Origin: Polaromonas sp.
GTDB lineage: Bacteria > Pseudomonadota > Gammaproteobacteria > Burkholderiales > Burkholderiaceae_C
DNA: 64,000 bases
Direction of reading: 5' to 3'
Assembly: GCA_013823635.1 (NCBI GenBank)
Contig: PNML01000005.1
Span: 1,742 to 65,741 of the forward strand
The notes beneath the pieces are model-generated. The model was given only the letters and a program-made list of their open reading frames with translations, made no database searches and was not told the origin of the DNA. Shown here one piece after another: positions 13,461 to 51,876 of the stretch. Within the stretch, counting starts at the first letter, position 1. Every line of letters starts with the position of its first letter. A program made the translations under genes and the position numbers.

Positions 13461-13464
13461 CTCA

Positions 13465-22123: not shown

Positions 22124-22129
22124 TCAACA

Positions 22130-22180
22130 ATGTGAACCAAATAGCCACCAAGCGCTTGATGGATATGGCTTTGCAGCTAT
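22130..22180 (-). repeat. AT-rich 51-nt dispersed repeat, copy C1 (left arm of head-to-head pair)
   Basis: Reverse complement reads ATAGCTGCA aagccatatccatc AAGCGCTT ggtggct ATTTGGTTCACAT. Confidence 0.7.
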
Positions 22181-22192
22181 AAAATTAATTGT

Positions 22193-22243
22193 ATAGCTGA
22201 CCATTCAATGACCACAAGCGTCAGAGGCTGATTTTTCGTATTT
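22193..22243 (+). repeat. AT-rich 51-nt dispersed repeat, copy C2 (right arm of head-to-head pair)
   Basis: ATAGCTGAC cattcaatgaccac AAGCGTCA gaggctg ATTTTTCGTATTT. Confidence 0.85.
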
Positions 22244-22255
22244 TTTGACGGGACA

Positions 22256-23353
22256 TCACACCTGCGCGGCCAGCGGCAAATTGAGCAGCAGGTTCTGAGG
22301 CTTGACGCGCACCAGCCCTTGGGCGTCGGTGGCCAGGCCCAGGTACACGGGTTTGCCCGCCACATCGGCCCGCATGTCGGCGGGGTCGGCAAAGCGCAGG
22401 GTGAACAGGCTCACCAGCTGGCGCAGGCGCTCGGGCTCCACCTCGTTGTGCTGGTACAGGTCGTTGAGCAAGGCGGTGGATGCCACGTCCAGACCCACAT
22501 GCCAGCGCCAGGCCGGGTCGTTGATGGCCTGCACCGGTTCAATCTGCACCTGCACGCCCATGAAATGCCGCACCCACAGGGCCAGCACCTGCGCCAGGGC
22601 CTTGAGGCCGGAATGCGCCAGGGTCAGGTTCAGCACCAGGCCGTGGCTCAAATCCTGGGTCAGCGCATGCGTCAGGTCCAGCAAAAACCGGTGCCGATGG
22701 CCTTCGCGCCAGAAGCGTTCGGTGTTGTCGGGGCCGAGCACCGGCATGTCGGGCCGGGGTTGGACGCTGCCGCTTTGCAGCAACAAGCGCCCCACCTGGC
22801 CCAGCCCGGCGGTTTCGTTCAGCAGGTCGAGCGTGTCGCGGTCACCGGCCAGCATGCGCCCCTCGTGCAGGGCCACCCGCTGGGTCCTGAACAGCATTTC
22901 AGCGGCCCTGACCTGAAACGCGTCACCCCTGTCGGTCAGCAACTGGCGCAGCACGGCCTGCGCCAGGGCGTCGATGAACACCGGCGGAATGCCGTTCACA
23001 CCGCCGCGCATGAGTTGCAGGTAGCAGGCCTCCAGCGTGCCAGCCGCCAGCAGCGTGTCGCGAAAGCGCAGAAACACCGCAAAGTTCTCGCGGGCATCGG
23101 CGTCGGCCACCGCGGCCAGTTCGGCAGCCGGCACCGCGCGCAAGGGTTGGGCCTGCAAGGCCTGGTGCAGCGCCACCTCGGCCCCGCACGACTCGGGCAC
23201 CAGCGCCAGTTCGGGCCGGGCCAGCAGCCAGCGCACGTAGTCCGCCGTGGGCACCAGCCAGCCGCAGGCGTCCTGCGTCAGGGTGTCAAAGCCGCAGTCG
23301 GGCCAGAAACCGGGCGGGTGGTCCATGGGGGTCACGGTGTCAGGCCCGGGCAA
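22256..23353 (-). CDS. conserved hypothetical protein downstream of guaA
   Basis: 365-aa ORF with GC-rich codon usage and no motif I recognise. It begins 6 nt after the guaA stop, on the same strand. Confidence 0.6.
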   Translation of the reverse strand: MPGPDTVTPMDHPPGFWPDCGFDTLTQDACGWLVPTADYVRWLLARPELALVPESCGAEVALHQALQAQPLRAVPAAELAAVADADARENFAVFLRFRDTLLAAGTLEACYLQLMRGGVNGIPPVFIDALAQAVLRQLLTDRGDAFQVRAAEMLFRTQRVALHEGRMLAGDRDTLDLLNETAGLGQVGRLLLQSGSVQPRPDMPVLGPDNTERFWREGHRHRFLLDLTHALTQDLSHGLVLNLTLAHSGLKALAQVLALWVRHFMGVQVQIEPVQAINDPAWRWHVGLDVASTALLNDLYQHNEVEPERLRQLVSLFTLRFADPADMRADVAGKPVYLGLATDAQGLVRVKPQNLLLNLPLAAQV

Positions 23354-23359
23354 AGGGAG

Positions 23360-24976
23360 TCACTCCCACTCGATGGTGGCTGGTGGTTTGCTGCTGACGT
23401 CGTAGGTCACGCGGTTGATGCCGCGCACCTCGTTGATGATGCGCCCGCTCACCTTTTTCAACAGGCTGTAGGGCAGCTCGGCCCAGTCGGCGGTCATGAA
23501 ATCGGAGGTTTGCACGGCACGCAGGGCCACCACGTAGTCGTAGGTGCGGCCATCGCCCATCACGCCCACGCTTTTCACCGGCAAAAACACCGTGAAGGCC
23601 TGGCTGGTCAGGTCGTACCAGCTCTTGCCGCTGTGGGGGTCGATGGTGGAGCGCAGTTCTTCGATGAAGATGGCATCGGCCCGGCGCAGCAGGTCGGCGT
23701 ATTCTTTTTTGACTTCGCCCAGGATGCGCACACCCAGGCCAGGGCCAGGGAAGGGGTGTCGGTAGACCATGTCGTGCGGCAGGCCCAGGGCCACGCCCAA
23801 CTCGCGCACCTCGTCCTTGAACAGGTCGCGCAGCGGCTCCAGCAGCTTCAGGCCCAGCTGCTCGGGCAAGCCACCCACGTTGTGGTGGCTTTTGATGGTG
23901 ACGGCCTTCTTGCTCTTGGCGCCACCGGACTCGATCACGTCGGGGTAGATGGTGCCCTGGGCCAGGAAGGTGGCGCCCTTGCGCGACTCATCCCCCGCCT
24001 TGAGCGACAGCGCCTGCGCCTTGAACACCTCCACAAATTCGCGGCCAATGATCTTGCGCTTGGCTTCGGGGTCGGCCACGCCGGTCAAATGACCCAGGAA
24101 CTGCTCGCTGGCGTCCACGCGGATGACCTTGGCGTGCAGCTTGCCCACGAACATGTCCATGACCATGTCGCCCTCGTTCAGGCGCAGCAGGCCGTGGTCC
24201 ACGAACACACAGGTGAGCTGGTCGCCAATGGCGCGGTGGATCAGCGCGGCGGCCACCGACGAATCGACGCCACCGGACAGGCCCAGGATGACCTCTTCGT
24301 CGCCCACCTGCTCGCGGATGGCTTGCACGGCCTCTTCGATGTGGTCGCGCATCACCCAGTCGGGCTTGGTGCCGCAAATGTCCAGCACAAAGCGCTCCAG
24401 CATGGCCTTGCCCTGCACGGTGTGGGTCACTTCGGGGTGGAACTGCACCGCGTAGAAATGGCGCGCTTCGTCGGCCATGCCCGCGATGGGGCAGCTGGGG
24501 GTGCTGGCCATGAGCTTGAAGCCCGGCGGCAGCTCGGTGACCTTGTCGCCGTGGCTCATCCACACCTTGAGCATGCCGTGGCCCTCGGGTGTGGTGAAGT
24601 CGTTGATGCCCTTGAGCAGCGCCGTGTGGCCACGGGCACGCACCTCGGCATAGCCGAATTCGCGGTTGTGACCGGCTTCCACCTTGCCGCCCAGCTGCTG
24701 GGCCATGGTCTGCATGCCGTAGCAAATGCCCAGCACGGGCACGCCCAGCTCAAACACGGCGTCGGGGGCCTTGTCGTCCACCTCGTACACGCTGGCGTGG
24801 CTGCCCGACAGGATCACGCCCTTGAGTTGGCCATCGGCGGCGTACTCGCGCACCCAGTCACTGGTTACGTCACAGGGGTGCACCTCGCAGTACACATGGG
24901 CTTCGCGCACGCGGCGGGCGATGAGCTGGGTGACCTGGGAGCCGAAATCGAGGATGAGGATTTTCTGGTGTTGCAT
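23360..24976 (-). CDS. guaA: GMP synthase (glutamine-hydrolysing)
   Basis: GATase motif GICYGMQ and ATP-PPase P-loop SGGVDSS are present, with the C-terminus ending PATIEWE. The start is ATG 24976 ([14 protein letters not shown]). Confidence 0.95.
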
Positions 24977-25072
24977 GGCGGAAACCGGCGTGGGGTGAGT
25001 GGGGGCCTGAAAAGACAACAGGCCGCCGCTTGTTGCAAGGGGCTGGCCTGGGGTCGTTGGAGGCGGAAAAAA

Positions 25073-27158
<2,086 letters not shown>

Positions 27159-27997: not shown

Positions 27998-28540
27998 ATG
28001 ACATCCAGCATACCCACCACCCCCGCAGGCAACCACGCCTCCCGTTTTGATCGAAAAGCCGCTGCCAAGGCCGCCAGCAACACGCCCCCCGTGCGCATTG
28101 CCGACAACAAAAAGGCCCTGTTCAACTACCACATCGAGGACCGCTACGAAGCGGGCATGGTGCTGCAGGGCTGGGAGGTCAAAGCCATTCGCTTGGGCAA
28201 GGTGCAGCTGACCGATGGCTATGTGGTCATCCGCGAGGGTGAGCTGTTTCTCATCGGCTGTCAGATCAACCCCATACGCACCACGTCCACCCACGTCACG
28301 GCGGAAGCGGCACGCACCAAAAAGCTGCTGCTCAACCGCGATGAAATCCGGCGGCTGATTGGCAAGGTCGAGCAAAAGGGTTTTACGCTGGTGCCACTGA
28401 ACCTGCACTGGAAGAACGGGCGCGTGAAGTGCGAAATTGCGCTGGCCAAGGGCAAGGCCGAGCACGACAAGCGCGACACCGTGAAGGAACGCGAAGGCAA
28501 ACGCGAGGTGGAGCGCACGCTGAAAATCCACCGGCGCTGA
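27998..28540 (+). CDS. smpB: SsrA-binding protein SmpB
   Basis: [32 protein letters not shown]...[18 protein letters not shown]. Confidence 0.9.
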
Positions 28541-28589
28541 TCGGCCTGTTCCGGCGCGGTGCCCGGCTGGGCGCCCGCAGCGGGGCGTG

Positions 28590-29678
28590 TCAGCTCAGGT
28601 CGGCCAAGGGGTGGGCGTGTGCCGGCCAGGGGCTCTGGAAAAACGGGGCCACCATGTCGGGGGTGACGTCCTCGGCGCGGGCGGGGTGCCAGCGGGGGGC
28701 ATGGTCCTTGTCCACCGCCAGGGCACGGATGCCCTCCACCGTTTCGCTGCTGGCGCCGCTGCGCCCCAAGTGAACGGCGTGGAAGCAGTGGCGCACCATG
28801 TCGCGCTCCATGCGCAAATCGTCTGCCAGGCCCATTTTTCGCGCTCGCCTCACCTGTTCCAGCACCACATGCAACATCAGCGGTGAACGCTGGCGCAACA
28901 CCGCCGCGGTTTCCGTGGCAAACGTGGAGGTGCCGCGCTCCAGTGCCGCGAGTATCTCAGGCACTGTGCCCAGAGAAAAATACTCATCAATTTGCGACCT
29001 GGCGCTTTTGTATATTGGTGTGGGTGCTATCAACTTGGTGGACACCAGGTGTTCCACGGCATTGGCCGACTGGAACGGCGTTGCCCCCAATTCTGCCCAC
29101 AGCACGTTCAAGCGCCCGGAGTCGATGCAACCATCGGCCAGGCCCCAGGCGACGGCATCACCGGCCTCCAGGCTCTGGCCGGTCAGGGCCAGCCACTCAC
29201 CGACCCGACCCGGGCAGCGGCTGAGGAAAAAGCCCCCACCCACATCAGGAAACAGGCCGATGCCGGTTTCCGGCATGGCCATGCGGGTGCGCTGGGTGAC
29301 CACACGCAGGCTGCCTCCCTGGCTGATGCCCATGCCGCCGCCCATGACCACACCGTCCATGAACGCGATGTAAGGCTTGGGGTAGGTGTGGATGAGGTGG
29401 TTGAGCCGGTACTCTTCGGTGAAAAAGTCCTCCAGCCGGGGGTCGCCCGCGAGAGCAGCCTGGTGGAAAAACCGGATGTCGCCTCCCGCGCAAAAGTGGC
29501 CAAACGGTGCCTCCTTGCCCGTGCCGCGGATGGCGACGGCCAGCACCTCGGGGTCATCGCGCCAGCGCAGCAGCGTGGCGGTGAGGTCGCGCACCATGTC
29601 CAAGGTGAGCGCGTTGAGTGCGCGTGGTCGGTTGAGGCTGATGAAACCCACACTGCCCTGCTGCTGGACCATCACCAT
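28590..29678 (-). CDS. enoyl-CoA hydratase/isomerase family, 3-hydroxyisobutyryl-CoA-hydrolase type
   Basis: Motifs FISLNRPRALNAL, FCAGGDIR and MDGVVMGGGMGIS are present. The ORF is open to 29819, but third-position GC is lower upstream, so I preferred ATG 29678. The start is uncertain. Confidence 0.7.
   Translation of the reverse strand: MVMVQQQGSVGFISLNRPRALNALTLDMVRDLTATLLRWRDDPEVLAVAIRGTGKEAPFGHFCAGGDIRFFHQAALAGDPRLEDFFTEEYRLNHLIHTYPKPYIAFMDGVVMGGGMGISQGGSLRVVTQRTRMAMPETGIGLFPDVGGGFFLSRCPGRVGEWLALTGQSLEAGDAVAWGLADGCIDSGRLNVLWAELGATPFQSANAVEHLVSTKLIAPTPIYKSARSQIDEYFSLGTVPEILAALERGTSTFATETAAVLRQRSPLMLHVVLEQVRRARKMGLADDLRMERDMVRHCFHAVHLGRSGASSETVEGIRALAVDKDHAPRWHPARAEDVTPDMVAPFFQSPWPAHAHPLADLS
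28980..29030 (-). repeat. AT-rich 51-nt dispersed repeat, diverged copy inside the HIBCH-type hydrolase CDS
   Basis: Reverse complement reads ATAGCACCC acaccaatatacaa AAGCGCCA ggtcgca AATTGATGAGTAT. It matches copy B at 29/51 positions, including 10/14 in the N14 block. Confidence 0.5.
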
Positions 29679-29822
29679 GGGGGCTGTGTCCGCTGACGGG
29701 CTGGTGGGTTCAGCCGCACCTGTGGTGAGTGGGTCCGAACGCGTGGGGGAGGAAGAGGACTGGGGCAACATGGTGGGAATGCGTTGAACCTTGTTGTGGT
29801 CGAAAAGAGGGTCAGCCAACCA

Positions 29823-30737
29823 TCATGCCACGGGCAGCGCAGGCTGTGCGGATTTGGCATGACTTCGTTCACGCCACGCCAGCCATTCGTTGCCCGCCAG
29901 CGCGCCCACCACCAGCAGGCCACCCCAGATGACATGGGGACTGGGCACTTCGTTGGCGCCCCACCAGGCCAGCAGGGTGCCAAACAACACCTCCAGCAAA
30001 CCCAGCAGCGACACCTCGGGCGCGCTGAGCACCCTTGCACAGACCACGGACAGGGCACAGGGAATGGCCAGCTGCCCCACCCCCAGACCCGCCAACAGCC
30101 ACAGGTCGTGGCCACTGGCGGCCAGTGGCCAGGCCAGCGGCAAGGTCACCAACGCCGACAGCAGTGCGCCCACCCACACGGCGGGCACCAAGTCGATGTG
30201 GCGCCCAGTGCGGGTGTTGCGCTGCACCAGCGTCCAGTTGACGGCGGCCGCCACGGGCACGCACATGGCCACCACGGTGCCAGCCACCTGTCCAGCCACG
30301 AGCTTGCTGCCAAAAATCCAGGCGATGCCCAACCCCGCCAGCGCGATGGCCACCCAGGTGCGACGAGGCAGGCGATGGCCGATGGTGAAACGGGACACCA
30401 GTGCCGTCAACAACGGGGCCACGGCCATGGTGACCAGCACATTGGCCACCGAGGTCAGGGTCAGCGCCACCATGAAGGCGGTGAACATGACGGACCAGCA
30501 CAAGCCGGACGCCCACAACACGGGGCCGGATTTCGCCACCTGAGCCCAGACACCGCGACCCTGCCACAGGGGCAGCAGCACCAGCAAGGCCACGAACGTG
30601 AAAAAAGCCCGCCAGAACGTGATTTCAAACGCCTGTGCGGACTCCAGATGCCGGGTCACCACCCCCGCGGTCGACCACAGGAACGTGGCCAACACCATGA
30701 GCAGAACGGCGCGTCCGTGGCTCAGCGTCTTGCCCAT
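29823..30737 (-). CDS. EamA/DMT-family transporter
   Basis: Ten predicted TM segments. The start is ATG 30737 (MGKTLSHGRAVLLMVLATFLWSTAG), 25 nt after the typA stop. Confidence 0.75.
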   Translation of the reverse strand: MGKTLSHGRAVLLMVLATFLWSTAGVVTRHLESAQAFEITFWRAFFTFVALLVLLPLWQGRGVWAQVAKSGPVLWASGLCWSVMFTAFMVALTLTSVANVLVTMAVAPLLTALVSRFTIGHRLPRRTWVAIALAGLGIAWIFGSKLVAGQVAGTVVAMCVPVAAAVNWTLVQRNTRTGRHIDLVPAVWVGALLSALVTLPLAWPLAASGHDLWLLAGLGVGQLAIPCALSVVCARVLSAPEVSLLGLLEVLFGTLLAWWGANEVPSPHVIWGGLLVVGALAGNEWLAWRERSHAKSAQPALPVA

Positions 30738-30762
30738 GTTGTCTGGATGTACCTGAAACCCA

Positions 30763-32589
<1,827 letters not shown>

Positions 32590-32601
32590 GGCGCTTCCTG
32601 G

Positions 32602-33591
32602 TCAATGTTTCAAGTCTTCAAAAATGGGGGCACTGGCGCGGTTGGCCTGTGCCTGTATCTGCTGGATTTCCAAGGGGTTGAGCAGGCGGTTGGGCACCAG
32701 CTCCCCGCCCGCAATGTGTGCCGTCCCCAGCAAGCTGTTGGGCGTGGGCCCAAACACCGCCACCTCGGCGGTGTCTGGCAAGGTGGTGCGGCGGCGCAAT
32801 CCGCTCAGGAAGCGGCCTGCATCTTCGTCGCACAAGGTGACAGGGTGGTGATGGGACAACAGCGCGGTGACCGGCATCAGGGCCGCCACGCGCAGGTCTT
32901 CGTCCATTGCTTCCAGGTCGGCCAGGCTGACGCAGTCGTGGGCCAGGTAGTCGCCCGTCTGGGTGCGCCGCAACGCCCGCAGGTGGCCCACGGTGCCCAA
33001 TGCCTTGGCCACGTCTTCACCCAGGGTGCGGATGTAGGTGCCTTTGCTGCAATATGCCTCAATTTCAATAGCTACAAAGTCTTTCACATCAAGCGATAGA
33101 CTCAATTTTAATTCATAAATTTCGATGTGGCGGGGTTCGCGGACAACCTCCACCCCTGCCCTGGCGTACTCGTACAAGGCCTTGCCGTCTTTTTTGAGGG
33201 CCGAGTACATGGGGGGCACCTGGGTCTGGGGACCGGTCATGGCCGCCGCCACACGGGCCAACAGGGCGGGTGTCACTTCGGGCACGGCGCAGGTCTGCAC
33301 CACATCGCCTTCCGCATCGCCGGTGGCGGTCGCTTGGCCGAGGCACAGCAGGGCCCGGTAACGCTTGCGGGCGTCCAGGTGTTGCTGGCTGAACTTGGTG
33401 GCTGCGCCAAAGCACAGCGGCAACACGCCGGTGGCCAGCGGGTCCAGCGTACCGGTGTGCCCGGCTTTGTCGGCGCGCAGCAACCACTTGGCCTTTTGCA
33501 AGGCCTGGTTGCTGGAAAGACCCAGCGGTTTGTCGAGCAACAACACCCCATGCACAGGGCGCCGCTGCACCCTGGTGCGTGGCGCGTTCAT
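32602..33591 (-). CDS. truB: tRNA pseudouridine(55) synthase
   Basis: [12 protein letters not shown] (catalytic Asp) and [10 protein letters not shown] motifs. It lies downstream of rbfA. Confidence 0.9.
33068..33118 (+). repeat. AT-rich 51-nt dispersed repeat, diverged copy inside the truB CDS (antisense)
   Basis: ATAGCTACA aagtctttcacatc AAGCGATA gactcaa TTTTAATTCATAA. It matches copy E at 31/51 positions and the acylase copy at 22/25 over the 8-mer-to-tail part. Confidence 0.6.
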
Positions 33592-33593
33592 GC

Positions 33594-33965
33594 TCAGTCG
33601 TCCTTGGCGCGGGAGGACACGGCTTTGGCGATCAGCGCATTCATGTCGGCCGCGCGCTCAGTGGTGCGGTCGAAATGGAAGTGCAGTGTCGGCACGGTGT
33701 GGATGTGCAGGCGCTTGAACAGGCCGCTGCGCAAAAATCCAGCGGCCTGGTTGAGCGCTGCCTCGGTGGATTGCGGGTCGCCCACCAACAGGCTGAAATA
33801 CACCTGCGCATGGGCGTAGTCCGGCGTGACCTCCACCGACTGGATGGTCACCATGCCCACACGCGGGTCCTTGAGCTCGCGGGCGATCAGTTCAGTCAGG
33901 TCGCGCTGAATCTGATCGGCCACGCGGTAGCCGCGATGGGGGGTGGAGGACTTCTTGGCTGCCAT
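33594..33965 (-). CDS. rbfA: ribosome-binding factor A
   Basis: 123 aa ([14 protein letters not shown]...DPRVGMVTI). It lies between infB and truB. Confidence 0.9.
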
Positions 33966-33973
33966 AAAACCGA

Positions 33974-36904
33974 TCAGAGCGTGCGAGCCACTTCCTTGAT
34001 TTCGAAGAACTCGAGTTGATCACCCTCTTTGATGTCGTTGTAGTTCTTGAGTTTGATACCGCACTCAAAACCTTCCTTGACTTCGCGCACATCGTCTTTC
34101 ATGCGCTTGAGGGAATCCAGCTCACCGGTGTAGATGACCGTGTTGTCACGCAGCAAGCGGAAGTGCGCGCCACGGTTGACCGAGCCGGCGGTGATCATGC
34201 AACCCGCCACCGTGCCGATCTTGGACGCCACAAACACCGTGCGGATCTCGGCCATGCCGATGACTTCCTCGCGGCGGTCTGGCGTCAGCATGCCGGACAT
34301 GGCCACCTTGAGTTCGTCCACCGCGTCGTAAATGATGCTGTAGTAGCGCAGGTCGATGCCGTTGCTGTCGGCCAGCTTGCGGGCTCCCGCGTCGGCACGG
34401 GTGTTGAAACCGATCACCACGGCCTTGGAGGCGATGGCCAGGTTCACGTCCGATTCGCTGATGCCACCCACGCCGGCGTACACCAGCTGGACCTTGATTT
34501 CGTCGGTGGACAGCTTGAGCAGCGACGTCGCCAACGCTTCCTGGGAGCCTTGCACATCGGCCTTGATGATGATGGGCAGAGTCTTGACCTCGCCGCCGGA
34601 CATGTCGCTGAACATGTTCTCCAGCTTGGACGCCTGTTGCTTGGCCAACTTGGTGTTGCGGAATTTGCCGGCGCGGTAGGTGGCGATTTCGCGTGCCCGA
34701 CGCTCGTCGGTCATGACCATGAAGTCATCCCCGGCCTGGGGCACTTCCGTCAAACCCTGGATTTCCACCGGAATGGACGGGCCGGCGGTTTTCGCGGGCT
34801 TGCCGTTTTCGTCCAGCATGGCGCGAACGCGACCATAGGTTTGACCCGCCAGCACCACGTCACCGGCCTTCAGGGTGCCGGACTGGACCAGTACGGTGGC
34901 CACGGGGCCACGGCCCTTGTCCAGACGGGCTTCGATGACCAGGCCTTTGGCCATGGCATCGACGGGCGCCTTCAGCTCCAGCACCTCGGCCTGCAGCAGC
35001 ACCTGCTCCAGCAGGTCGTCAATGCCCTGGCCGGTTTTCGCCGACACGGACACGAAGGGCGAATCGCCACCGAATTCTTCGGGCACCACCTCTTCCACCA
35101 CCAGCTCGTTCTTCACACGCTCGGGGTTGGCATCGGGTTTGTCAATCTTGTTGACCGCCACCACGATGGGCACACCGGCCGCTTTGGCGTGTTTGATGGC
35201 TTCTTTGGTTTGGGGCATCACGCCGTCGTCGGCCGCCACCACCAGGATGACGATGTCGGTGGCCTTGGCGCCGCGTGCACGCATGGCCGTGAAGGCCTCG
35301 TGACCGGGGGTGTCCAGGAAGGACACCATGCCGCGCGGCGTTTCCACGTGGTAGGCGCCGATGTGCTGCGTGATGCCGCCGGCTTCACCCGACGCCACTT
35401 TGGCGCGGCGGATGTGGTCCAGCAGCGAGGTTTTGCCGTGGTCAACGTGGCCCATGACCGTGACCACAGGGGCACGGGGCAGGGACTCACCCACCTGGGA
35501 TTGCACCTCTTCGTCGGTGAAGGCTTCCGGATCGTCGAGTGCGGCCACCACCGCTTTGTGACCCAGTTCTTCGACCACGATCATCGCGGTGTCCTGGTCC
35601 AACGGCTGGTTGATGGTGACCATCTGGCCCAGTTTCATCAACTGCTTGATGACCTCTGACGACTTCAGGCTCATTTTGTGCGCCAGTTCCGCCACCGTGA
35701 TGGTTTCGGGCACGTGCACCTCAATCACCTTCACCTCGGCGGAGGCCATGAAGTTGCTGTTGGCGCCGCTGTCGCGGTTGTCGCGGTCACCGCGACGCCC
35801 ACGGGGGCCGCTGCGCCAGTTGCCACCACGCCCGTTGGACGAGGTGTCCCCACGGGTTTTGATTTCTTTCTTCTTGGCCGCGTCGTCTTTCCAGGTGGAA
35901 GACAGGTTGGCCGATTTCACTTCCTTCTTGCCACCGCCCGCTGGCGATGTGCTGGCGGCCGGCCGCGCTGCCCCCGGCGCAGGCGTGCCTGCCGGCTTGT
36001 GGAGCGTGCCTTTGATGCCGGCGGCGGGAGCGGCCACAGGTTCTGGCTTCTTGGCCACCAACACCTTTTTGGGTGCAGACATCATTTCTCGGATGGCGGC
36101 GGCTTCTGCTTCGGCCTTGCGTCGGCGGTCCTGCAGGTCTTTGGCTTTGGCGGCTTCAGCTGCCTTGGCCTCTGCCGCTTTGGCCAACTGGGCTTTGCGG
36201 ATGTCCTCGGCGGAGGGGGCTGCGGGGGGGGTGGGGGCTGCTGCGGGAACCGGTTTGGCAGCTTCGGCCGGTGCAGTGCTGGCTGGTGCCACGGCATCCG
36301 CCTTGTCGGCGGGTTTGGCAGGCGCAGGAGCGTGCCGGGCCGCTGACAGCATGGCCACTTCGGCTTCGGCGGCGGCGCGGGAAGCTTCGCGGCTGCGCTC
36401 ACGGTCGGCTTCGGCGGCCTCTTGTGCCTCCTTGGCCTCCTGGGCTTCGCGGGCCTGACGGGCCTGGTTCAACTCTTCCTCTTGTTGGCGCAGCTGTTCG
36501 GCTTGTCGGCGCGCCTCTTCCTCGCGACGGATCAGCTCAGCGGGATCCACCGCGGGTGCCTCCACCGGTGCCGGCGCAGGCGCCTCGACCACAGGCAGGT
36601 CTTCGTCACGCTGGATGAAGGTGCGTTTCTTGCGCACTTCCACCTGAATGGTGCGTGCGCGGCCAGTGGCGTCCGCCTGCTTGATCTCGGAGGTGGATTT
36701 CTTCACCAGGGTGATCTTCTTGCGCTCGCCGGTGGCCGTGCCATGGCTGGTTTGCAGGAAAGACAGGAGTTTGTGCTTGTCCGCCTCGGAGACCGAATCG
36801 GCCCCGGACGTCTTGGGCACGCCCGCGCTGGCCAGTTGCTCCAGCAGGGTGTGGGGTGTTTTGTGCAGCTCGGCTGCCAGTTCTGCGACGGTGATGCTGG
36901 TCAT
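33974..36904 (-). CDS. infB: translation initiation factor IF-2
   Basis: G-domain motif [16 protein letters not shown], a long Ala/Glu/Lys-rich N-terminal region, 976 aa. Confidence 0.95.
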
Positions 36905-36931
36905 GGGTGGTGTACTCCGTTGCCTCCGTGA

Positions 36932-38431
36932 TCAAGTGTTGGGCTGAGTGTCTTCACTGGTGAACCAGTGCGCACGGGCCAACATGATCAGGGCAGTCGC
37001 TTCTTCGGGTGATTGGCCCGTGATGTCTGACAATTCGTCGGTGGCCAGGTCGGCCAGGTCGTCACGGCTGTGAATACCCGCTTCGGCCAGCTTGGCAATG
37101 AGTTCGGTGGAAAGGCCTTCCAAGGCCCGCAGGTCCTGAGACACCTCTTCCACGCTTTCCTCGCGCGCCAGCTCCAAGGTCAGCAGTGCGTCCTTGGCAC
37201 GGCTGCGCAGTTCGTTGACGGTTTCTTCGTCGAAGGCCTCGATGTCCAGCATCTCCTGCAGCGGCACATAGGCCACCTCTTCCAGGCTGGTGAAACCTTC
37301 TTCGATGAGGATGTCGGCCATTTCCTGGTCCACATCGAGTTTGGACATGAACAGCTTGCGCACGGTGTCCGACTCTTCAGCCTGCTTCTGCGCGGACTCG
37401 TCGGCGGTCATGATGTTGATGCGCCATCCGGTCAACTCAGAGGCCAGACGGACGTTTTGGCCACCGCGGCCAATGGCAATGGCCAGGTTCTCCTCATCCA
37501 CCACCACATCCATGGCATGGCGTTCCTCGTCCACCACAATGGACTGGACGTTGGCGGGCGCCAGGGCGCCGATCACGAACTGGGCGGGATCTTCGCTCCA
37601 CAGCACGATGTCCACGCGCTCGCCGGCCAACTCGTTGGTCACGCCTGTCACACGGGAGCCTCGCACGCCCACGCAGGTACCGATGGGGTCCACACGCTTG
37701 TCGTGGGACAGCACCGCAATTTTGGCGCGTGAGCCCGCGTCGCGAGCGCAGGATTTGATTTCCAGCAAACCCTGCTCGATCTCGGGCACTTCCTGGCGAA
37801 ACAACTCCACCATGAAGGACGGCGACGAGCGTGACAGCAAAATGGGCGCACCACGCAGGGTGAGGTCGACCTCGGTGATGATGGCGCGCACACGGTCACC
37901 CGTGCGGAAGTTTTCCTTCGGGATCATCTCGGTGCGCTTCAGGCGCCCCTCGACCCGACCGCTTTCCACAATCAGGTCGCCTTTGTCCATGCGCTTGACG
38001 GTGCCCACAAAAATTTTCTCGCCGCGCGACATGAAGTCGTTCAGCAGCATCTCGCGCTCAGCGTCGCGGATTTTTTGCAGGATGACCTGCTTGGCCGCCA
38101 TGGCGCCGATGCGACCGATGGGCATGCTCTCGATGGGCTTCTCGATGTAGTCGCCCACCTCGATGTCTGCAATGTCGTCCTGGGCATCGGACAACATTTC
38201 CTCTGCCTCGGGGTTTTGCAAGCCGGCTTCATCGGGCACCACCAGCCAGCGGCGGAAGGTTTCGTAGTTGCCGCTGTCGCGGTCGATCACCACGCGAATG
38301 TCCACTTCGCCCTGGTACAACTTTTTGGTGGCGGAGGCCAGGGCCAGTTCAACTGCCCCGAACACGACGTCCCGCTCCACGTTTTTCTCACGAGAGATAG
38401 CGTCGACCAACATCAGGAGTTCGCGATTCAT
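36932..38431 (-). CDS. nusA: transcription termination/antitermination factor NusA
   Basis: [18 protein letters not shown] at the N-terminus, with S1, two KH domains and C-terminal acidic repeats. 499 aa. Confidence 0.95.
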
Positions 38432-38479
38432 TTCACTGGCCTGCCTTTCTTTTTTCTGCCGTCAAATTCATAAAAAACA

Positions 38480-39094
38480 TCATTCGGTTGCGCCAGGCGC
38501 CTCAGTGGCACCGACGCTGTCTTGTTCTGTGGGTGCCAGGGCCTTGCGCCCTTTGCCTTTGAAGTCCACGATGGGCGCGAGGCGCGCGTCGCGTATTTCA
38601 TCCAGCGTGAACTGCATCGCCTGCAGCGGCACGGGCGGGCGCTTTTTGCTGACGCGGGCGCCGGGCTTCACGGGGGGTGCATCCGACCAGACAATTTGCC
38701 AATGCCCTGGCTGGGTGCCCGCTTCCAGCGTGCCACGAAATTTCTTGCGGTTGACCGCGATGTCCGTCCCCGTGACGCCAATGGCCTCTTTCAGGGTCAG
38801 GTCCACTTCGGCCCCCACAAAGCGGGCGAAGTCGGCCTCGTGGCGCAAGGGGCGGTCAATGCCTGGCGAGCCAACTTCCAACCGCTTGTAATCCACCTGC
38901 TCCACCTCCAGCAGGAATTGCAGCTGCCGAGTGACGGTTTCGCAGTCTTCCACCGTGACAAACTGTTCGGGTTGTCCCGCCACAAAGGGCATGTCGATGG
39001 TGATGCGCAGCAAACCGGCAGCCGAGCGCTCGATTTCAACGAGGTCGTACCCCAAACCGGTCACGGTTTGCTCGACAGATGTTTGCCACGTCAT
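38480..39094 (-). CDS. rimP: ribosome maturation factor RimP
   Basis: TGLGYDLVEIERSAAGLLRITID. First gene of the nusA operon. I took the start as ATG 39094; the track ORF opens at TTG 39130. Confidence 0.8.
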   Translation of the reverse strand: MTWQTSVEQTVTGLGYDLVEIERSAAGLLRITIDMPFVAGQPEQFVTVEDCETVTRQLQFLLEVEQVDYKRLEVGSPGIDRPLRHEADFARFVGAEVDLTLKEAIGVTGTDIAVNRKKFRGTLEAGTQPGHWQIVWSDAPPVKPGARVSKKRPPVPLQAMQFTLDEIRDARLAPIVDFKGKGRKALAPTEQDSVGATEAPGATE

Positions 39095-39134
39095 GGGTGC
39101 TGCGTTGTGGGTGTGAGGTGAGTGGTTCAATGTT

Positions 39135-39178
39135 CAAAAAATCACGCCCAAAAAAAATGGGCGGTGATTACCCGCCCA
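39135..39178 (-). terminator. two overlapping, mutually exclusive terminator hairpins in the rimP-nusA-infB leader
   Basis: The minus strand reads GGGCGG-gtaatca-CCGCCC + T8. The alternative is AATCACCGCCCA-T7-TGGGCGTGATT + T4. The two hairpins share the CCGCCCA arm. Confidence 0.6.
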
Positions 39179-39196
39179 TTTGGTCGTGAAGCTCGC

Positions 39197-39225
39197 ATTC
39201 TAACCGGACAAAACGCCCCCAGCAA
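39197..39225 (-). promoter_or_regulatory. putative sigma70 promoter of the rimP operon
   Basis: The minus strand reads TTGCTG-N17-TAGAAT. The predicted transcript start lies about 15 nt before the leader hairpins. Confidence 0.35.
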
Positions 39226-39335
39226 GCCCGACCTTGGTGCCAACACCCTTTCCGTGGGTCTTGGTGCCGATGTCTGGCCCGAAGGCAGGCAGATGGGGGG
39301 GTGCGGCACCTACGACCGCATCGGCAGAGCACCGA

Positions 39336-39557
39336 TTACATGCCCAATGCCCACTGAATGATGGATTTGGCGATGAAGCCCAACATGCCAAACGACAGCA
39401 CCAAAAACAAAATGAAGGTGCCGAATTTGCCAGCCTTGGATTCGCGTGCCAGGTTCAACACGATGAACAGCATGTACAAAATGAAGGCGGTGACGCCAAC
39501 GCTGAGTCCGAACTGTGCGACTTGTCCTTCGGTGTAACCGAACAGTGTGTTTTCCAT
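39336..39557 (-). CDS. small two-TM membrane protein (DUF2788-like)
   Basis: 73-aa hydrophobic ORF (GKFGTFILFLVLSFGMLGFIAKSIIQ). The family assignment is from memory of similar small proteins. Confidence 0.5.
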   Translation of the reverse strand: MENTLFGYTEGQVAQFGLSVGVTAFILYMLFIVLNLARESKAGKFGTFILFLVLSFGMLGFIAKSIIQWALGM

Positions 39558-39613
39558 GGTTTGCGATGCGTGGTGCGCTCAGGCACGGTGGGCAGGGTTT
39601 GCCCGAGTATCGC

Positions 39614-40375
39614 TCATGGCGCGTCTGTCAGTTCCCGGTAAGCGTGCCAGCTGGCGTGGGCCAGCACGGGAATGGTGACCACCAGACCCAGCAATGCAGT
39701 GGCCATGCCCAGGCCGGCCAGCAGCATGATCACCAGTGCCCAGATGCCCAGGGGGATGGGGTTGGTGGCCACAGCCCGCCAGCTGGCATGAACCGCCTGC
39801 AGCACCGTGACCTTGGTGTCCACCAGCATGGGGATGGCCACCACACTGGATGCAAACACCGGCGCGGCCAGCAAACCACCCAGCAGCACCCACAACTCAA
39901 ACAACCAGGAGGAAGGAGACAGCACCACGTGGTGCAAAAAATCGGTTGGGTTGTGCACGGGCGCGGTGGACAGCACCGTGATGAGCCCCGCCGACGTCAC
40001 GACCCAGCCCGTGCCCGCCAGGCTGAGCAGCAGACCGAAGCGCACCAGTCGGCCATCGCCGGACTTCCACAGGGCCAACACCTCGCCCATGCCCACACAG
40101 TGGCCAGTGTTGCAGCTCTTGCTGACCTGGTAGAGGCCAGTGGTGAGGATGGGGGCCACGATCAAAAAACCGGAAAAAGCCCCCGCCAGCAACCAAAAAT
40201 GGTTGCCTGCGGCCAGCAGCAGCACCCACCCAAACAGGGCGAGCAGCACCCCGTGGACCAGACCCGGCACCGGGTTGCGGCGGAAGTCCGCCCAACCCAG
40301 ACGCAGCCAGCGCAGGGGAGCGCCAAGGTCAACGGTGGCAGGGGCATTCAGTGGGGTCGAAATGTGCAAATTCAT
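39614..40375 (-). CDS. polytopic membrane protein (DUF2189-like)
   Basis: ATG 40375 gives MNLHISTPLNAPATVDLGAPLRWLRLGWADFRRNP, followed by several TM segments. Confidence 0.55.
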   Translation of the reverse strand: MNLHISTPLNAPATVDLGAPLRWLRLGWADFRRNPVPGLVHGVLLALFGWVLLLAAGNHFWLLAGAFSGFLIVAPILTTGLYQVSKSCNTGHCVGMGEVLALWKSGDGRLVRFGLLLSLAGTGWVVTSAGLITVLSTAPVHNPTDFLHHVVLSPSSWLFELWVLLGGLLAAPVFASSVVAIPMLVDTKVTVLQAVHASWRAVATNPIPLGIWALVIMLLAGLGMATALLGLVVTIPVLAHASWHAYRELTDAP

Positions 40376-40449
40376 GGCGAAAACAGTGTAACGGGCATCT
40401 CTCGCCAGCGTGCAGCGGGTAAACACGAGGACGTTGCGGTTGGGGTTGT

Positions 40450-42063
40450 TCAGCCGGAGGACGCCGCCACCAACGCCTGTGTGTAAGGGTTTTCGGGCTT
40501 GTCCAGCACCGCCTGCCAAGGACCGGCTTCCACCACCCGCCCCGCTTGCAACACCATCACATGGTGGGCCATGGCGCGGATGACGCCCATGTCGTGGGTG
40601 ATGAGCAGGTAGCTCAAGCCGCGCTCCCGTTGCAGGCGCTGCAGCAGTTGCAGCACCTGCTTTTGCACCGTCACGTCCAGCGCGCTGGTGGGTTCGTCCA
40701 GCACCAGCACATCCGGCTGCACCACCAGGGCCCTGGCAATGGCCAGTCGCTGGCGCTGCCCACCGGAAAACTCGTGGGGGTAGCGCGACAGCCATTGGCG
40801 CGTGAGGCCGTCGGCGGGTGTCGCGTCGGCCGTCAACAACCCCACTTCCTTCAATGCCTCGACGACCTGGGCCTGGCGCGCCTCTGCGCCGAGGTGCGGT
40901 GCGTGGACCAGCAGACCTTCAGACACGATCTGCTCCACCGTCATCCGGGGGGAGAGTGACGAAAACGGGTCTTGAAACACCACTTGTACCTGTCGGCGCT
41001 GCGCACGTTTGGCGGCGATTGGCTTGGCCCAGGGCTGGCCACCCACGCGAAGGTCGCCCTCGAACGGCAACAGGTCCAGCGCGGCCAGCGCCAGGGTGGA
41101 TTTGCCGGAGCCCGATTCGCCCACCACCCCCAGGGTGCACCCGCGGGGCAACACAAAGTCGGCACCATGCAGCGCCACCGCCGCGCCCCGGCGAAACCAG
41201 CCGCGCCAGCCCGGCAAGGGCACGGGGTAGGCAACACGCACGGCCTGACCGGCCAGGGGCGGCTCACCCGTGGCGGGCGTTTGCGCCACCGCCAAGGGAT
41301 CCCGCTCGGGTCGGCTGTCCAGCAACTGCCGGGTGTAGGGGTGCTGGGGATGGGCAAACACGTCGGCCACCCTGCCCTGCTCCACCACGACGCCGCGTTC
41401 CATCACGGCCACGCGGTCGGCGAAGCGTTTGACCATTTGCAGGTCGTGGGTGATGAGCAGCACCGCCATGCCGTGTTGGCGTTGCAGCTCAGCCACCAAG
41501 CCCAAAATCTGGCCGCGCAGCGAGACGTCGAGCGCGGTGGTGGGCTCGTCGGCCAGCAGCAACTTGGGCCGGCTGGCCAGCGCCATGGCAATGACGACGC
41601 GCTGGCGCTGCCCACCACTGAGCTGGTGCGGGTAGGACCTGGCTTTTTGCGCGGGGTCGGGTAGGCCCACTGAGTTCAATAAATCAATAGCATGAACAAT
41701 AGATTCATCATGCGTTAGAAGTCTTTTTTGATTAAAAACCTCGGCCACTTGGTCGCCCACGGTCATCAGGGGGTTCAGAGCCGTCATGGGCTCTTGGAAG
41801 ACCATGGCCACCTCGCCCCCGCGCACCTGACGCAGTTCGGGCTCGGTCATGCCGAGGAGGTCGCGGCCCTCCAGCAACGCCTTGCCGCTGGTGCGCGCCT
41901 GGGGCACCAGCCCCAGCAAGCTGAGCGCGGTGATGGTTTTGCCCGAGCCTGACTCCCCCACCAGGGCCAGCTTTTCACCCGGGTGCATCTGGAGGCTCAC
42001 CCCTTTGACCACCTCGTGTCCGCCAAAGGACACCCGCAAATCCTGTAGGTCCAGCAGGCTCAT
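40450..42063 (-). CDS. yejF: ABC transporter ATPase with two fused cassettes (YejF-type peptide/microcin C importer)
   Basis: Two Walker A motifs (GESGSGKT, GESGSGKS) and two signature motifs (LSGGQRQR, FSGGQRQR) are present. The ATG overlaps the yejE stop. Confidence 0.85.
   Translation of the reverse strand: MSLLDLQDLRVSFGGHEVVKGVSLQMHPGEKLALVGESGSGKTITALSLLGLVPQARTSGKALLEGRDLLGMTEPELRQVRGGEVAMVFQEPMTALNPLMTVGDQVAEVFNQKRLLTHDESIVHAIDLLNSVGLPDPAQKARSYPHQLSGGQRQRVVIAMALASRPKLLLADEPTTALDVSLRGQILGLVAELQRQHGMAVLLITHDLQMVKRFADRVAVMERGVVVEQGRVADVFAHPQHPYTRQLLDSRPERDPLAVAQTPATGEPPLAGQAVRVAYPVPLPGWRGWFRRGAAVALHGADFVLPRGCTLGVVGESGSGKSTLALAALDLLPFEGDLRVGGQPWAKPIAAKRAQRRQVQVVFQDPFSSLSPRMTVEQIVSEGLLVHAPHLGAEARQAQVVEALKEVGLLTADATPADGLTRQWLSRYPHEFSGGQRQRLAIARALVVQPDVLVLDEPTSALDVTVQKQVLQLLQRLQRERGLSYLLITHDMGVIRAMAHHVMVLQAGRVVEAGPWQAVLDKPENPYTQALVAASSG
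41687..41737 (+). repeat. AT-rich 51-nt dispersed repeat, most diverged candidate copy inside the yejF CDS (antisense)
   Basis: ATAGCATGA acaatagattcatc ATGCGTTA gaagtct TTTTTGATTAAAA. It matches copy A at 27/51 positions. The block spacing and GC anchors are conserved. Confidence 0.4.
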
Positions 42064-43184
42064 GGCTGCTCCTGTGCCTGATCGGCTTTGCGGGGGTCGA
42101 GCGCGTCGCGCAGCGCATCACCCATGAAGGTGAGCAGCATCAGCGTGAGCACCAGCACCCCGAAGGTGGACAGTGAGATCCACCACGCATCGATGCTGTT
42201 TTTGCCTTGGGACAACAGTTCGCCCAGCGAAGGGGTGCCGGGTGGCACACCCAGGCCCAGAAAGTCCAGGCTGGTGAGGGCCAGAATGGCCGCGCTCATG
42301 CGAAACGGAAGGAAAGTGACCACCGGGGTGAGGCTGTTGGGCAGTATGTGGCGGGTGATGATGTGCCAGTGCCCCACACCCATGGCCCGTGCGGCCCGCA
42401 CGTAGTCGAGCTGGCGGTTGCGCAGGAACTCGGCGCGCACGTAGTCGGACAGGCCCATCCAGCCAAACAGGCTGAGCAGCACCAACAACAGGCCCACGCT
42501 GGGCGCAAACACCGCCGAAAAAATGATGAGCAGGTACAGCTCGGGCATGGAACCCCAGATTTCAATGAAGCGCTGAAAGGCCAGATCGGTCTTGCCGCCA
42601 AAGTAGCCCTGAATGGCACCTGTGAGCACCCCCAGCAGCACACCCGTCACGGTGAGGGCCAGCGCGAACAGCACACTCACCCGAAAGCCATAAATGAGCT
42701 GGGCCAGCAGGTCGCGGCCCCTGTCGTCGGTGCCCAGCCAGTTGTCGGCGCTGGGCGCCGAGGGGTTGGGGTGCAGGGCAAAGTAGTTCAGGGTTTTGGG
42801 ACCATAGGGGTTGGGCGGGTAGATGGCCCAGTTGCCGCCGCTGGTGATGCGTTCGCGGATGAACGGGTCCAGGTAGTCGGTGGGTGTGGGAAAGTCACCG
42901 CCGAAGGTGGTTTCTGCGTAGTCGTGCAGCACCGGCACATACCACTGGCCCTGGTAGCGCACCACCAGTGGCCGGTCGTTGGAAATGACCTCGGCCATCA
43001 GGCTCAGCGCCACCATCAACCCAAACACCCACAGGCTGAAATATCCCATCCGGTTGCGCCGAAACCGCCACCACGCCCTGCGGCTGGGGGACACGGACGG
43101 TTGCCACGCGCCGGCAGACAGCGCAGGCGGCGGCGAGGCGGTGGCAGCGGATGGATCTGGGTGGGACGGAAGGGACGGGGTCAT
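42060..43184 (-). CDS. yejE: ABC transporter permease YejE-type
   Basis: BPD-transport permease with an N-terminal extension. The start is ATG 43184 (the ORF is open to 43241). The stop overlaps the yejF start. Confidence 0.8.
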   Translation of the reverse strand: MTPSLPSHPDPSAATASPPPALSAGAWQPSVSPSRRAWWRFRRNRMGYFSLWVFGLMVALSLMAEVISNDRPLVVRYQGQWYVPVLHDYAETTFGGDFPTPTDYLDPFIRERITSGGNWAIYPPNPYGPKTLNYFALHPNPSAPSADNWLGTDDRGRDLLAQLIYGFRVSVLFALALTVTGVLLGVLTGAIQGYFGGKTDLAFQRFIEIWGSMPELYLLIIFSAVFAPSVGLLLVLLSLFGWMGLSDYVRAEFLRNRQLDYVRAARAMGVGHWHIITRHILPNSLTPVVTFLPFRMSAAILALTSLDFLGLGVPPGTPSLGELLSQGKNSIDAWWISLSTFGVLVLTLMLLTFMGDALRDALDPRKADQAQEQP

Positions 43185-43201
43185 GGGCAGGGGCAAGGGC
43201 G

Positions 43202-44239
43202 TCAATCGAACTTCACACGCGGGTCCACCCACACGTAGCACAGGTCACTGATGAGTTTGGTGAACAACCCCAGCAGCGTGAACAGGTAGAGCGTGCCCAG
43301 CACCACGGGGTAGTCGCGGCGGATCACGCTCTCAAAACTCAGCAAACCCAGGCCGTCCAGCGAAAACAGGGTTTCAATGAGCAGCGAGCCGGTGAAGAAT
43401 GCCCCGATGAACGCCGCCGGAAAGCCCGTCACAATGGGCAGCAGCGCGTTGCGAAACACATGGCCATACAGCACCTGCTGCTCGCTCAGGCCCTTGGCGC
43501 GGGCCGTGAGCACGTATTGCTTGCGGATTTCTTCGAGGAACGCGTTTTTGGTGAGCATGGTGGTCACGGCAAAACTGCCCAGCACCATGGCCGTGACGGG
43601 CATGGCGATGTGCCACAGGTAGTCCACCACGCGGGCGCCCCAGCCCAGCTCGTCCCAGTTGGCCGACGTGAGCCCGCGCAGGGGAAACCACTGCAACTGC
43701 CCCCCGAACACCACCAGCAGCGCCACCCCCAACACAAACCCGGGTATGGCGTAACCGGCCAGCACCAGCAGGGTGGTCACCAGGTCAAACCGGGTGCCGG
43801 CCCGCACCGCCTTGGCCACACCCAGCGGCACTGCCACGCCATAGCTGATGAAAAATGTCCACAACCCCAGGCTGACGGACACGGGGAGCTTCTCGACCAC
43901 CAGGTCCCACACGTCCTTGTTCTGGAAGAAGCTGCGCCCCAGGTCGAAGCGGGCAAACTGGCCCAGCATCTGCACAAAGCGCTCGTGCGCAGGTTTGTCA
44001 AACCCGTACAGCGCCTTGATCTGCTCCAGCCGTTTGGGGTCCACGCCCTGCCCGCCCCGGTAGCTCAGCCCGCCGCCCTCGGCGCCACCGCCACCGGCCA
44101 CGCTGCCGGCCTTGGCCTCGGCCAGGTACTGCTCCACCGGCCCGCCAGGGACAAACTGGATGACGACGAAGGTCAGCAACAGCACGCCCAGCAGCGTGGG
44201 CACCATCAGCAACAGGCGTTTGAGTATGTAGGACAGCAT
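43202..44239 (-). CDS. yejB: ABC transporter permease YejB-type
   Basis: ATG 44239 gives MLSYILKRLLLMVPTLLGVLLLTFVVIQFVPGGP, a typical DppB/YejB N-terminus. Confidence 0.85.
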   Translation of the reverse strand: MLSYILKRLLLMVPTLLGVLLLTFVVIQFVPGGPVEQYLAEAKAGSVAGGGGAEGGGLSYRGGQGVDPKRLEQIKALYGFDKPAHERFVQMLGQFARFDLGRSFFQNKDVWDLVVEKLPVSVSLGLWTFFISYGVAVPLGVAKAVRAGTRFDLVTTLLVLAGYAIPGFVLGVALLVVFGGQLQWFPLRGLTSANWDELGWGARVVDYLWHIAMPVTAMVLGSFAVTTMLTKNAFLEEIRKQYVLTARAKGLSEQQVLYGHVFRNALLPIVTGFPAAFIGAFFTGSLLIETLFSLDGLGLLSFESVIRRDYPVVLGTLYLFTLLGLFTKLISDLCYVWVDPRVKFD

Positions 44240-44276
44240 GGGTTCAGGGGCGGCGGTGCGGAGCGGCGGATGGCGG

Positions 44277-46082: not shown

Positions 46083-46162
46083 GCGACAATTCTGCCCACT
46101 TTCGGATCGGCCTCCCGGCCAACCAGCCTTCATCCTCACTTTCACGCAGAACGAGACACCCC

Positions 46163-46957: not shown

Positions 46958-46958
46958 T

Positions 46959-47009: not shown

Positions 47010-47018
47010 TCATTTTTT

Positions 47019-47855: not shown

Positions 47856-47875
47856 TGCACACCCCCGGCGGGGGG

Positions 47876-51786: not shown

Positions 51787-51876
<90 letters not shown>

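Follow-up and report, generated by a model that had tools for sequence, protein, structure and literature searches.

The truB locus

We analysed a stretch of 64,000 nucleotides of a Polaromonas sp. genome (contig PNML01000005.1; the whole stretch is hereafter called the window) and report that its truB gene contains, within the conserved coding sequence, an AT-rich patch that is a copy of a repeat family dispersed over the same window. The gene order at the locus is infB, rbfA, truB, typA, with almost no gap between truB and typA. The features of truB, in window coordinates, are as follows.

32602-33591, minus strand: truB coding sequence, 329 amino acids, with the Pfam domains TruB_N and TruB_C_2, taken from the list of open reading frames (ORFs); rbfA lies upstream and typA (bipA) downstream.
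33052-33126, plus strand: the embedded element, 75 bases or 25 truB codons, AT-rich and with rare codons, read by truB antisense to the orientation of the family.
33068-33073, plus strand: the ATAG(CT) tag, an exact match to the family skeleton, read in truB as (GT)A GCT AT(T), i.e., Val-Ala-Ile.
33091-33099, plus strand: the block AAGCGATAG (family consensus AAGCGCTGG), 17 nt after the tag.
33104-33120, plus strand: the T-rich 3' block ATTTTAATTCATAAAT (family consensus TTTTTATTGA/TTTTTATTCA), located by alignment to family copies.

A first-pass annotation of this DNA had pointed to a repeat copy at 33068-33118, and the plus-strand letters that it quoted are exact. It had also considered the codons atypical for a GC-rich genome, which agrees with the local GC content at third codon positions (GC3): 0.24 in the 25 patch codons and 0.83 in the remaining part of truB. 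In the 100 nt around the patch GC content is 0.39, the genome value being 0.65. Gene calling based on GC3 is unreliable on this GC-rich DNA, and genes were identified with Pfam instead.

The protein encoded by the window gene matches the structures of E. coli TruB (1r3f, 1k8w; E=2e-59). As the annotation had stated, and as the ORF and the alignment confirm, the element lies in frame and antisense to truB, ending one codon ahead of the catalytic motif CSKGTYIR. The ORF is uninterrupted, the Pfam domains are complete and the orthologs are conserved; therefore, the element is translated in frame inside a functional gene.

Membership in the repeat family

The tag and the following block are part of the skeleton ATAGCT-N17-AAGCG, which is found with at most one mismatch nine times in the window against 0.28 expected; six occurrences are exact, including the truB site. 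When a profile of the six intergenic copies alone was used with nhmmer, the truB patch was the best match outside the seed (33064-33120, 17.6 bits, E=1.9e-4), followed by the sites in the penicillin-amidase, the yejF-like ABC ATPase and the HIBCH-like hydrolase genes. Conversely, a profile of the truB patches from 27 relatives (window excluded) aligns to the window at 33049-33128 with E=2.5e-10 and also finds non-truB copies, with E from 7e-6 to 1e-3. AT-richness alone cannot account for the match, because not one of 5000 dinucleotide-preserving shuffles of the patch came near the real score (25.7 bits, the shuffle maximum being 11.6).

Without gaps, the truB patch is identical to the intergenic copies at 26-33 of 51 positions (31/51 for the copy at 59393) and to the acylase copy at 34/51. 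The identities given by the annotation, 31/51 to its copy E (59383-59449) and 22/25 to the acylase copy over the block that it quoted, were reproduced. The patches of relatives (their loci are designated by L and a number) resemble the family even more than that of the window does: truB of L043 reads ACTATGATTTTAATAGCTGCTTGCGCGCGTTTATCAACGGCTAGAGCCATATTT and an intergenic copy of L043 reads GCTATGAAATAAATAGCTGCTTGCGCGCTACTTATCACGGCTAGAGCTGTTTTT. Within a genome the match can be nearly complete, as for L043 truB and position 11020 of the same locus. The skeleton, the profile built without truB and the shuffles establish the patch as a true member of the dispersed family, in agreement with the annotation. 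A literature search for the core strings of the family found no paper that contains them.

The family copies in the window, with nhmmer E-values, are listed below; the six strong intergenic ones comprise four between co-directional genes and two that form a head-to-head dimer between convergent genes.

4822-4889, minus strand: intergenic copy (E=1.7e-14), filling the gap between purA and a phosphoribosyltransferase gene (neighbours identified by Pfam).
13400-13468, plus strand: intergenic copy (E=1.8e-12), filling the gap between SDR and chromate-transporter genes.
22121-22190, minus strand, and 22183-22252, plus strand: head-to-head dimer of two copies (E=3e-12 and 1.5e-13) between convergent genes.
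46951-47018, minus strand: intergenic copy (E=2.9e-11), filling the gap between fabI-like and DNA ligase genes.
59383-59449, plus strand: intergenic copy (E=1.4e-12) between LysR and aminotransferase genes.
16913-16964, minus strand: intragenic copy, sense, in a penicillin-amidase (acylase) gene (E=1.1e-3; Pfam).
28978-29036, minus strand: intragenic copy, sense, in a HIBCH-like enoyl-CoA hydratase/hydrolase gene (E=0.02; codon alignment of 49 orthologs).
41678-41737, plus strand: intragenic copy, antisense, in a yejF-like ABC ATPase gene (E=0.014; ortholog alignment).

The architecture of the family consists of a weak CTAT, an AT-rich spacer of 7 nt, the tag ATAG or GTAG with CTGC after it, and a variable stretch, which folds into a hairpin in some of the copies; next come GCGCTnGAGGCC or GGCTAnAGCC and a T-rich tail. 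The tag is invariably ATAG in the window copies and in truB; GTAG variants are found in L036, L037, L060, L075 and L040. The acylase copy (sense, 16913-16964) and the truB copy (antisense, 33091-33115) share the derived variant AAGCGATnGAnTCAATTTTnATTCA, which differs from the intergenic consensus.

The dimer at 22121-22252 exactly fills a gap of 132 nt between the end of a TauE-like gene (22123) and the end of a minus-strand ORF (22256), and the gaps 4822-4898, 13398-13468 and 46951-47021 between co-directional genes are each filled end to end by one element. In these three gaps the next start codon is just 4-13 nt past AGCTAT and the T-rich tail, and two of the three lack a Shine-Dalgarno sequence; if the reverse orientation were a promoter, the three gap-filling copies would give leaderless or near-leaderless mRNAs.

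The sites in the window are at about 4.9, 13.4, 16.9, 22.2, 29.0, 33.1, 41.7, 47.0, 59.4 and 62.5 kb, and about four of these ten are inside genes. Their spacing is more even than random: the gaps have a coefficient of variation of 0.47 (P=0.012; P=0.022 if the intergenic sites are kept in place), and it is in the long stretches devoid of intergenic copies that the intragenic ones are found. The copy near 62.5 kb, which the annotation had assigned to hrpA, could not be upheld, being below the profile threshold; the AT-rich stretch in question (62425-62589, in the minus-strand ORF 61570-63987) contains the palindrome TTCATCGCTTTATTGGAAAGCGATGA and a family-like 3' half, AGGCGCTGCCAGAGGCTGATTTTTCAATCC.

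The annotation had further noted one codon phase common to the antisense intragenic copies and another common to the sense copies. The phases are given correctly for the truB, ABC, acylase and hydrolase copies; the argument is too thin, with two antisense and two sense secure cases. A part of the bias follows from the motif itself, because a sense copy cannot be read in one or two of the frames owing to the stop codons TAG (in ATAG) and TGA (in ATAGCTGA).

Absence of an insertion

The segment of truB that carries the element is free of gaps in a protein alignment of 80 relatives from the genome collection, the sole exception being a deletion of 3-4 residues in part of Variovorax, and its length is the same in relatives without the AT-rich state. 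The truB segment exceeds that of E. coli TruB (1r3f, 1k8w) by 4 residues, with both neighbouring strands in alignment (IEIYEL/ITVYEL and AIEIEAY/LELEIH); the comparison with E. coli made in the annotation, a difference of about 4 residues, is correct. Its view that this is not a simple insertion is supported by the equal lengths in carriers and non-carriers. The truB copy was made in place and not inserted. The further proposal, namely overwriting of native sequence by the repeat or its convergence on the repeat, is compatible with the alignments without indels and is not proven by them.

The hydrolase and ABC genes have followed the same course as truB, with conserved in-frame copies and no added length. 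The segment with the hydrolase copy aligns without gaps to human HIBCH, and that with the ABC copy aligns without gaps to ABC proteins of M. tuberculosis. The ABC peptide is clearly homologous, residue by residue, between carriers and GC-rich non-carriers (EVLQLKKALTPAESAQAAIKLLADT and EVLELHEGLSARAAQAAAVQLLADT, respectively).

Distribution among relatives and link to the family

A patch bearing ATAGC is found at the same truB codons in 54 of 161 related genes from the genome collection and metagenome loci. The named genera among its bearers are Polaromonas, Rhodoferax, Hylemonella, Ottowia, Giesbergeria, Extensimonas and Acidovorax, in addition to many metagenome-assembled genomes (MAGs); isolates of Ottowia and Extensimonas are included. 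In the codon alignment the carriers share the AT-rich patch with GCAGCTAT(T/C)AAAAT. The supposition that the patch could be specific to this lineage was thus not confirmed by the ortholog alignment, since at least seven named genera of Comamonadaceae have it. Patch-bearing genomes also carry the family, and the case that the annotation had named as speaking against its reading, the same AT-rich codons in genomes without the family, was not encountered. The patch is as old as the family of genera examined. A segment of foreign origin making the gene a mosaic is ruled out, because the patch is common to many genera and matches the resident family.

The hydrolase copy has the full architecture, in sense orientation and at a single position across many genera, e.g., GCTACACATTTGATAGCTGCTCACGCTCGT...AAGCGCCGGAGGCCCATTTGATCAATATTTC in L134; the ABC copy is present, antisense, in L085, L088, L151, L153 and L155. 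We also searched the genome and metagenome collections for closer truB genes, with a view to conversion tracts, and found nothing above 78% amino-acid identity except the identical protein, which occurs in one MAG and two sequencing runs.

In Variovorax (32 loci, 399 kb) there are no family matches outside truB, and GC3 of the patch is 0.76-1.0; a few remnants are retained, such as CTACTATTTTGATAGTGG. The 35 patch-bearing loci from other genera (364 kb) have 10 family matches outside truB. The truB patch has been lost together with the family.

The copies in truB and in the hydrolase gene are more alike within a genome than between genomes (12.2 vs 9.8, permutation p=5e-4, 17 de-duplicated genomes). 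For example, in Polaromonas L069 both have AGCTGCTTGCGCCCGT...GCTACAGCC, and in Giesbergeria L044 both have AAGCGCTnGAG. The truB copy drifts in step with another intragenic copy. It is not the master copy of the family; this was ruled out, as intergenic copies are not consistently nearest to truB of their own genome. In four genomes without the intragenic hydrolase copy, a canonical copy stands directly after the stop codon of that gene, which may be its positional substitute:

L036, 5491-5546: canonical copy after the stop codon.
L037, 11116-11170: the same.
L060, 6176-6231: the same.
L074, 11049-11101: the same.

Maintenance of the patch

Codon fixation was considered in 30 patch-bearing truB genes selected for ATAGC at this position. 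Fixation of rare codons is complete or almost complete: ATA for Ile in 16/16 cases, AAT for Asn in 19/20 and ATT for Ile in 27/29. Ala is GCT in 30/30, but this residue sits inside the ATAGC tag by which the genes were selected. At conserved residues the identity of synonymous codons is 0.60 in the patch and 0.50 elsewhere, while amino-acid identity is 0.47 in the patch and 0.72 elsewhere. In 18 independent close pairs, amino acids differ at 19.6% of positions in the patch and at 7.7% elsewhere (p=3e-14), i.e., about 2.5 times more often.

Third-position changes polarised by an outgroup are balanced in the patch, with 26 from A/T to G/C and 22 in the reverse direction. Per A/T site the former occur at 0.077 in the patch and at 0.158 elsewhere (odds ratio 0.45, p=6e-5). 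With an AT-rich equilibrium and a per-site loss of A/T half that of the remaining gene, the patch is not a decaying relic. Both its AT-richness and its motif are maintained against the bias of the genome.

Structure and expression signals

Perfect hairpins of 14-17 bp preceded by ATAG are present in some intergenic copies of relatives; the fold z-score of L040 5542-5591 is -6.5. The hairpin copies L040 5542-5591, L016 5551-5608 and L075 5536-5598 are located between infB and rbfA in Extensimonas and Ottowia; in the window this gap is only 8 nt. The fold z-scores of the window copies are from 0 to -1 and that of the truB patch is about 0; over the truB copies the mean folding bias is weak (z -0.5/-0.9).

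With the sigma-70 criterion of -35 and -10 hexamers spaced by 16-18 nt, with A at position 2 and T at position 6 of the -10, no promoter was found at the patch in scans of 32500-33700 and 28000-47999. Two of the six intergenic copies score as sigma-70-like in the opposite orientation (TTTACT-18-TATATT and TTGATG-18-TAAAAT). Compensation by a typA promoter was ruled out, as lineages without the patch have even tighter junctions, with truB-typA overlaps of -4/-7 nt. No intrinsic terminator, taken as a GC-rich stem-loop with a T run behind it, was found at the patch, and some intergenic relatives look like bidirectional terminators. In Rfam only a tRNA reached the gathering score in the window, and L043, L040 and L075 gave nothing at E<=1.

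Two features concern other parts of the window. The tRNA gene is at 51787-51873 (55 bits) and is followed by a strong terminator-like hairpin at 51884-51910. An open frame of 1406 amino acids at 22319-26539 (plus strand) has no Pfam match and is probably a shadow of the minus-strand ORFs 22256-23353, 23360-25018 and 25073-27004.

Discussion

The reading that we put forward, with about as much confidence in it as doubt, is that native truB codons were turned by recoding, without insertion, into a site belonging to a REP-like family (REP, repetitive extragenic palindromic) and that this site is held by a force acting at the DNA level, which we take to be weak selection through a trans-acting factor. 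The native codons of a tolerant beta-hairpin before CSKGTYIR would have been recoded by synonymous and conservative changes until the antisense strand read as a family copy. The target of the force maintaining the patch would be the DNA sequence and not the protein, and this force would be tied to the presence of the family in the genome. We presume that the truB site could be recognised on DNA by the same factor as the intergenic copies, weak selection holding the site, and that lineage-specific "dialects" would be tracked jointly by all copies. The hydrolase and ABC genes would have undergone the same recoding. The intergenic copies appear to behave like REP elements, and binding of a nucleoid protein, gyrase or a Y1-nuclease may be proposed as a REP-like role.

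Selection, and not recombinational drive, would be the force. We favour a selected site because the sites have been positionally stable for a very long time and the copies seem too dissimilar for ectopic conversion. Two weaker hints in the same direction are the canonical copies after the stop codon in the four genomes without the hydrolase copy and the even spacing of the sites.

Several points weigh against this proposal. The trans-acting factor and the function of the site are putative. The covariation between copies fits recombinational drive equally well. The truB patch of the window scores no better against the intergenic profile of the window than the patches of L001, L044 and L002, and homogenisation within a genome is therefore not uniform. 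Synonymous differences at short distance are barely lower in the patch than elsewhere (24.5% vs 29.0%, p=0.07, 18 pairs). The clean intergenic hairpin is not conserved in truB: among 31 truB copies RNAalifold found nothing and a specified two-helix structure was without covariation, and shuffles of the window patch fold as well as the patch itself. Finally, the test of even spacing was post hoc and includes weak sites.

It is tempting to go further and to consider the family as a chromosome-level "punctuation" site, read by a lineage-specific protein and needed every few kb, although we regard this as rather unlikely. Operons without intergenic room, such as rimP-nusA-infB-rbfA-truB-typA, would then get the site written into tolerant coding segments. 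If so, genes would carry a second conserved layer of information, co-evolving in dialect across the copies.

An alternative that we consider unlikely, though worth serious attention, is recombinational drive without function: coding segments that already resembled the repeat, such as the Ala-rich "AQAA" (GCGCAGGCAGC, the stem of the element), would have been overwritten time and again by ectopic gene conversion from the numerous dispersed copies, and the patch would be selfish or neutral, tolerated as the hairpin is not critical. The covariation of the truB and hydrolase copies within genomes, the derived variant that the window truB and acylase copies share over 22/25 positions, the fast protein evolution in the patch and its loss where the family is absent all speak for such a process. 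It is less easily reconciled with the low identity of copies from the same genome, which is only about 55-65%, with no exact run above approximately 16 nt in the copies inspected; conversion of the RecA type normally needs longer identity than that. The positions are, moreover, orthologous and stable across genera, and the window patch is no closer to the window copies than the patches of relatives are. It seems to us improbable that a palindromic repeat was inserted in frame in ancient times, as with Rickettsia palindromic elements (RPEs) or intragenic REPs, and that the original hairpin was then lost, restoring the length. Intragenic REPs and RPEs are documented (PMC3733652) and the segment exceeds that of E. 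coli by 4 residues, but in three genes the element-bearing segment has the length of the non-bearing orthologs and distant homologs, and the ABC peptide is homologous residue by residue between bearers and non-bearers.

No better prospects can be given to an internal promoter (TTGATG-N16/18-TAT... in truB sense) driving typA/bipA, or antisense RNAs elsewhere, with the intergenic copies serving as promoter/UP-element cassettes. Two intergenic copies are sigma-70-like when read this way and in this register, a start codon follows 4-13 nt after the end of three copies, and typA follows truB with almost no gap; but the truB patch contains no promoter-like site, most truB copies have TTGAAA or TCAACA at the -10 position, copies of the hairpin type lack the hexamers, and two of the four intragenic copies would fire antisense. 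The overlap of truB and typA in patch-free lineages also leaves no space for a compensating promoter. We see still less reason to expect that the rare codons form a conserved cluster slowing the ribosome for co-translational folding, with an incidental resemblance to the repeat: they are indeed fixed across genera directly before CSKGTYIR, but it would be left unexplained why the patch matches intergenic DNA block by block, why two other genes show this architecture on either strand and why the patch is lost with the family in Variovorax. A chance or compositional likeness of an AT-rich coding patch to AT-rich intergenic DNA can be practically dismissed, being refuted at the level tested. In its favour, the coding patch and the intergenic DNA are alike islands of high AT in a GC-rich genome, and single-copy E-values are modest (1.9e-4); against this stand the 0/5000 shuffles, the success of the reverse profile search, the exact skeleton and the conservation of the motif in 54 orthologs.

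We believe that the observation is of general interest. Intragenic repeats of bacteria are known as insertions that add residues, while here three conserved genes have copies that add no length. A force at the DNA level can override codon usage and, in part, protein sequence in the core of a housekeeping enzyme over a very long term. If selection for a DNA site is responsible, this is a tractable case of overlapping codes and a route to the factor that reads REP-like elements in Betaproteobacteria; if drive is responsible, it is a new example of repeat-directed gene recoding. Such patches could also pass for horizontal transfer or assembly error.

Comparison with known systems

RPEs are "selfish DNA in protein-coding genes", adding 30-50 residues as clear insertions. 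The present family resembles them in being translated in frame within conserved genes, in those parts of the protein that tolerate change; it differs in the absence of a net insertion, the peptide being still alignable to homologs from E. coli, human and mycobacteria.

DNA uptake sequences (DUS of Neisseria) and uptake signal sequences (USS of Pasteurellaceae) also occur inside coding regions, about once per kb. As in our case, copies of the motif are created by in-place substitution in tolerant segments, orthologous sites are occupied in common, dialects differ by lineage, inverted pairs between genes resemble terminators, and the copies are all lost together. The density here is lower, about one per 6-35 kb, and conservation extends over a unit of about 70 nt. 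There is no excess of the short core: in 0.97 Mb, counting both strands, ATAGCTG was found 68 times, against about 60 by a rough estimate from base composition, and the truB site alone makes up about half of its AT-flanked occurrences.

The BRE repeat is known from Bordetella and Comamonadaceae, with 29 copies in Polaromonas JS666, and sometimes lies wholly within a coding sequence (Hot et al. 2011, PMC3110155). Both are thus repeats found in Comamonadaceae and at times within coding sequence; however, the published BRE units (TTTTTTTTTGGCCGCGGGCCGCCCAAGGCAAAAAAGCCCCC...) are about 69% GC, about 90 bp long and tandem, with no block in common with this family. Identity with BRE was ruled out, since the published units are unrelated in sequence.

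The closest parallel may be the GTAG-tagged REP/BIME superfamily associated with RAYT (Di Nocera et al. 2013, PMC3733652), for which intragenic REPs, like RPEs, are documented as insertions. Our family shares with it the tetranucleotide tag, which is ATAG and in several relatives GTAG and which in clean copies stands at the base of a variable, GC-rich hairpin. Further shared features are a frequency of tens of copies per Mb, a position behind stop codons where the neighbouring genes are co-directional or convergent, pairing into head-to-head dimers and occasional intragenic units. Our family departs from REP in its length of about 70 nt, its AT-rich flanks and conserved 3' block, in the lack of a stable hairpin in most window copies and all truB copies, and in the share of intragenic sites, about 4 of 10 in the window. 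Unlike intragenic REPs, the intragenic copies described here are not insertions and are conserved at orthologous codons across genera.

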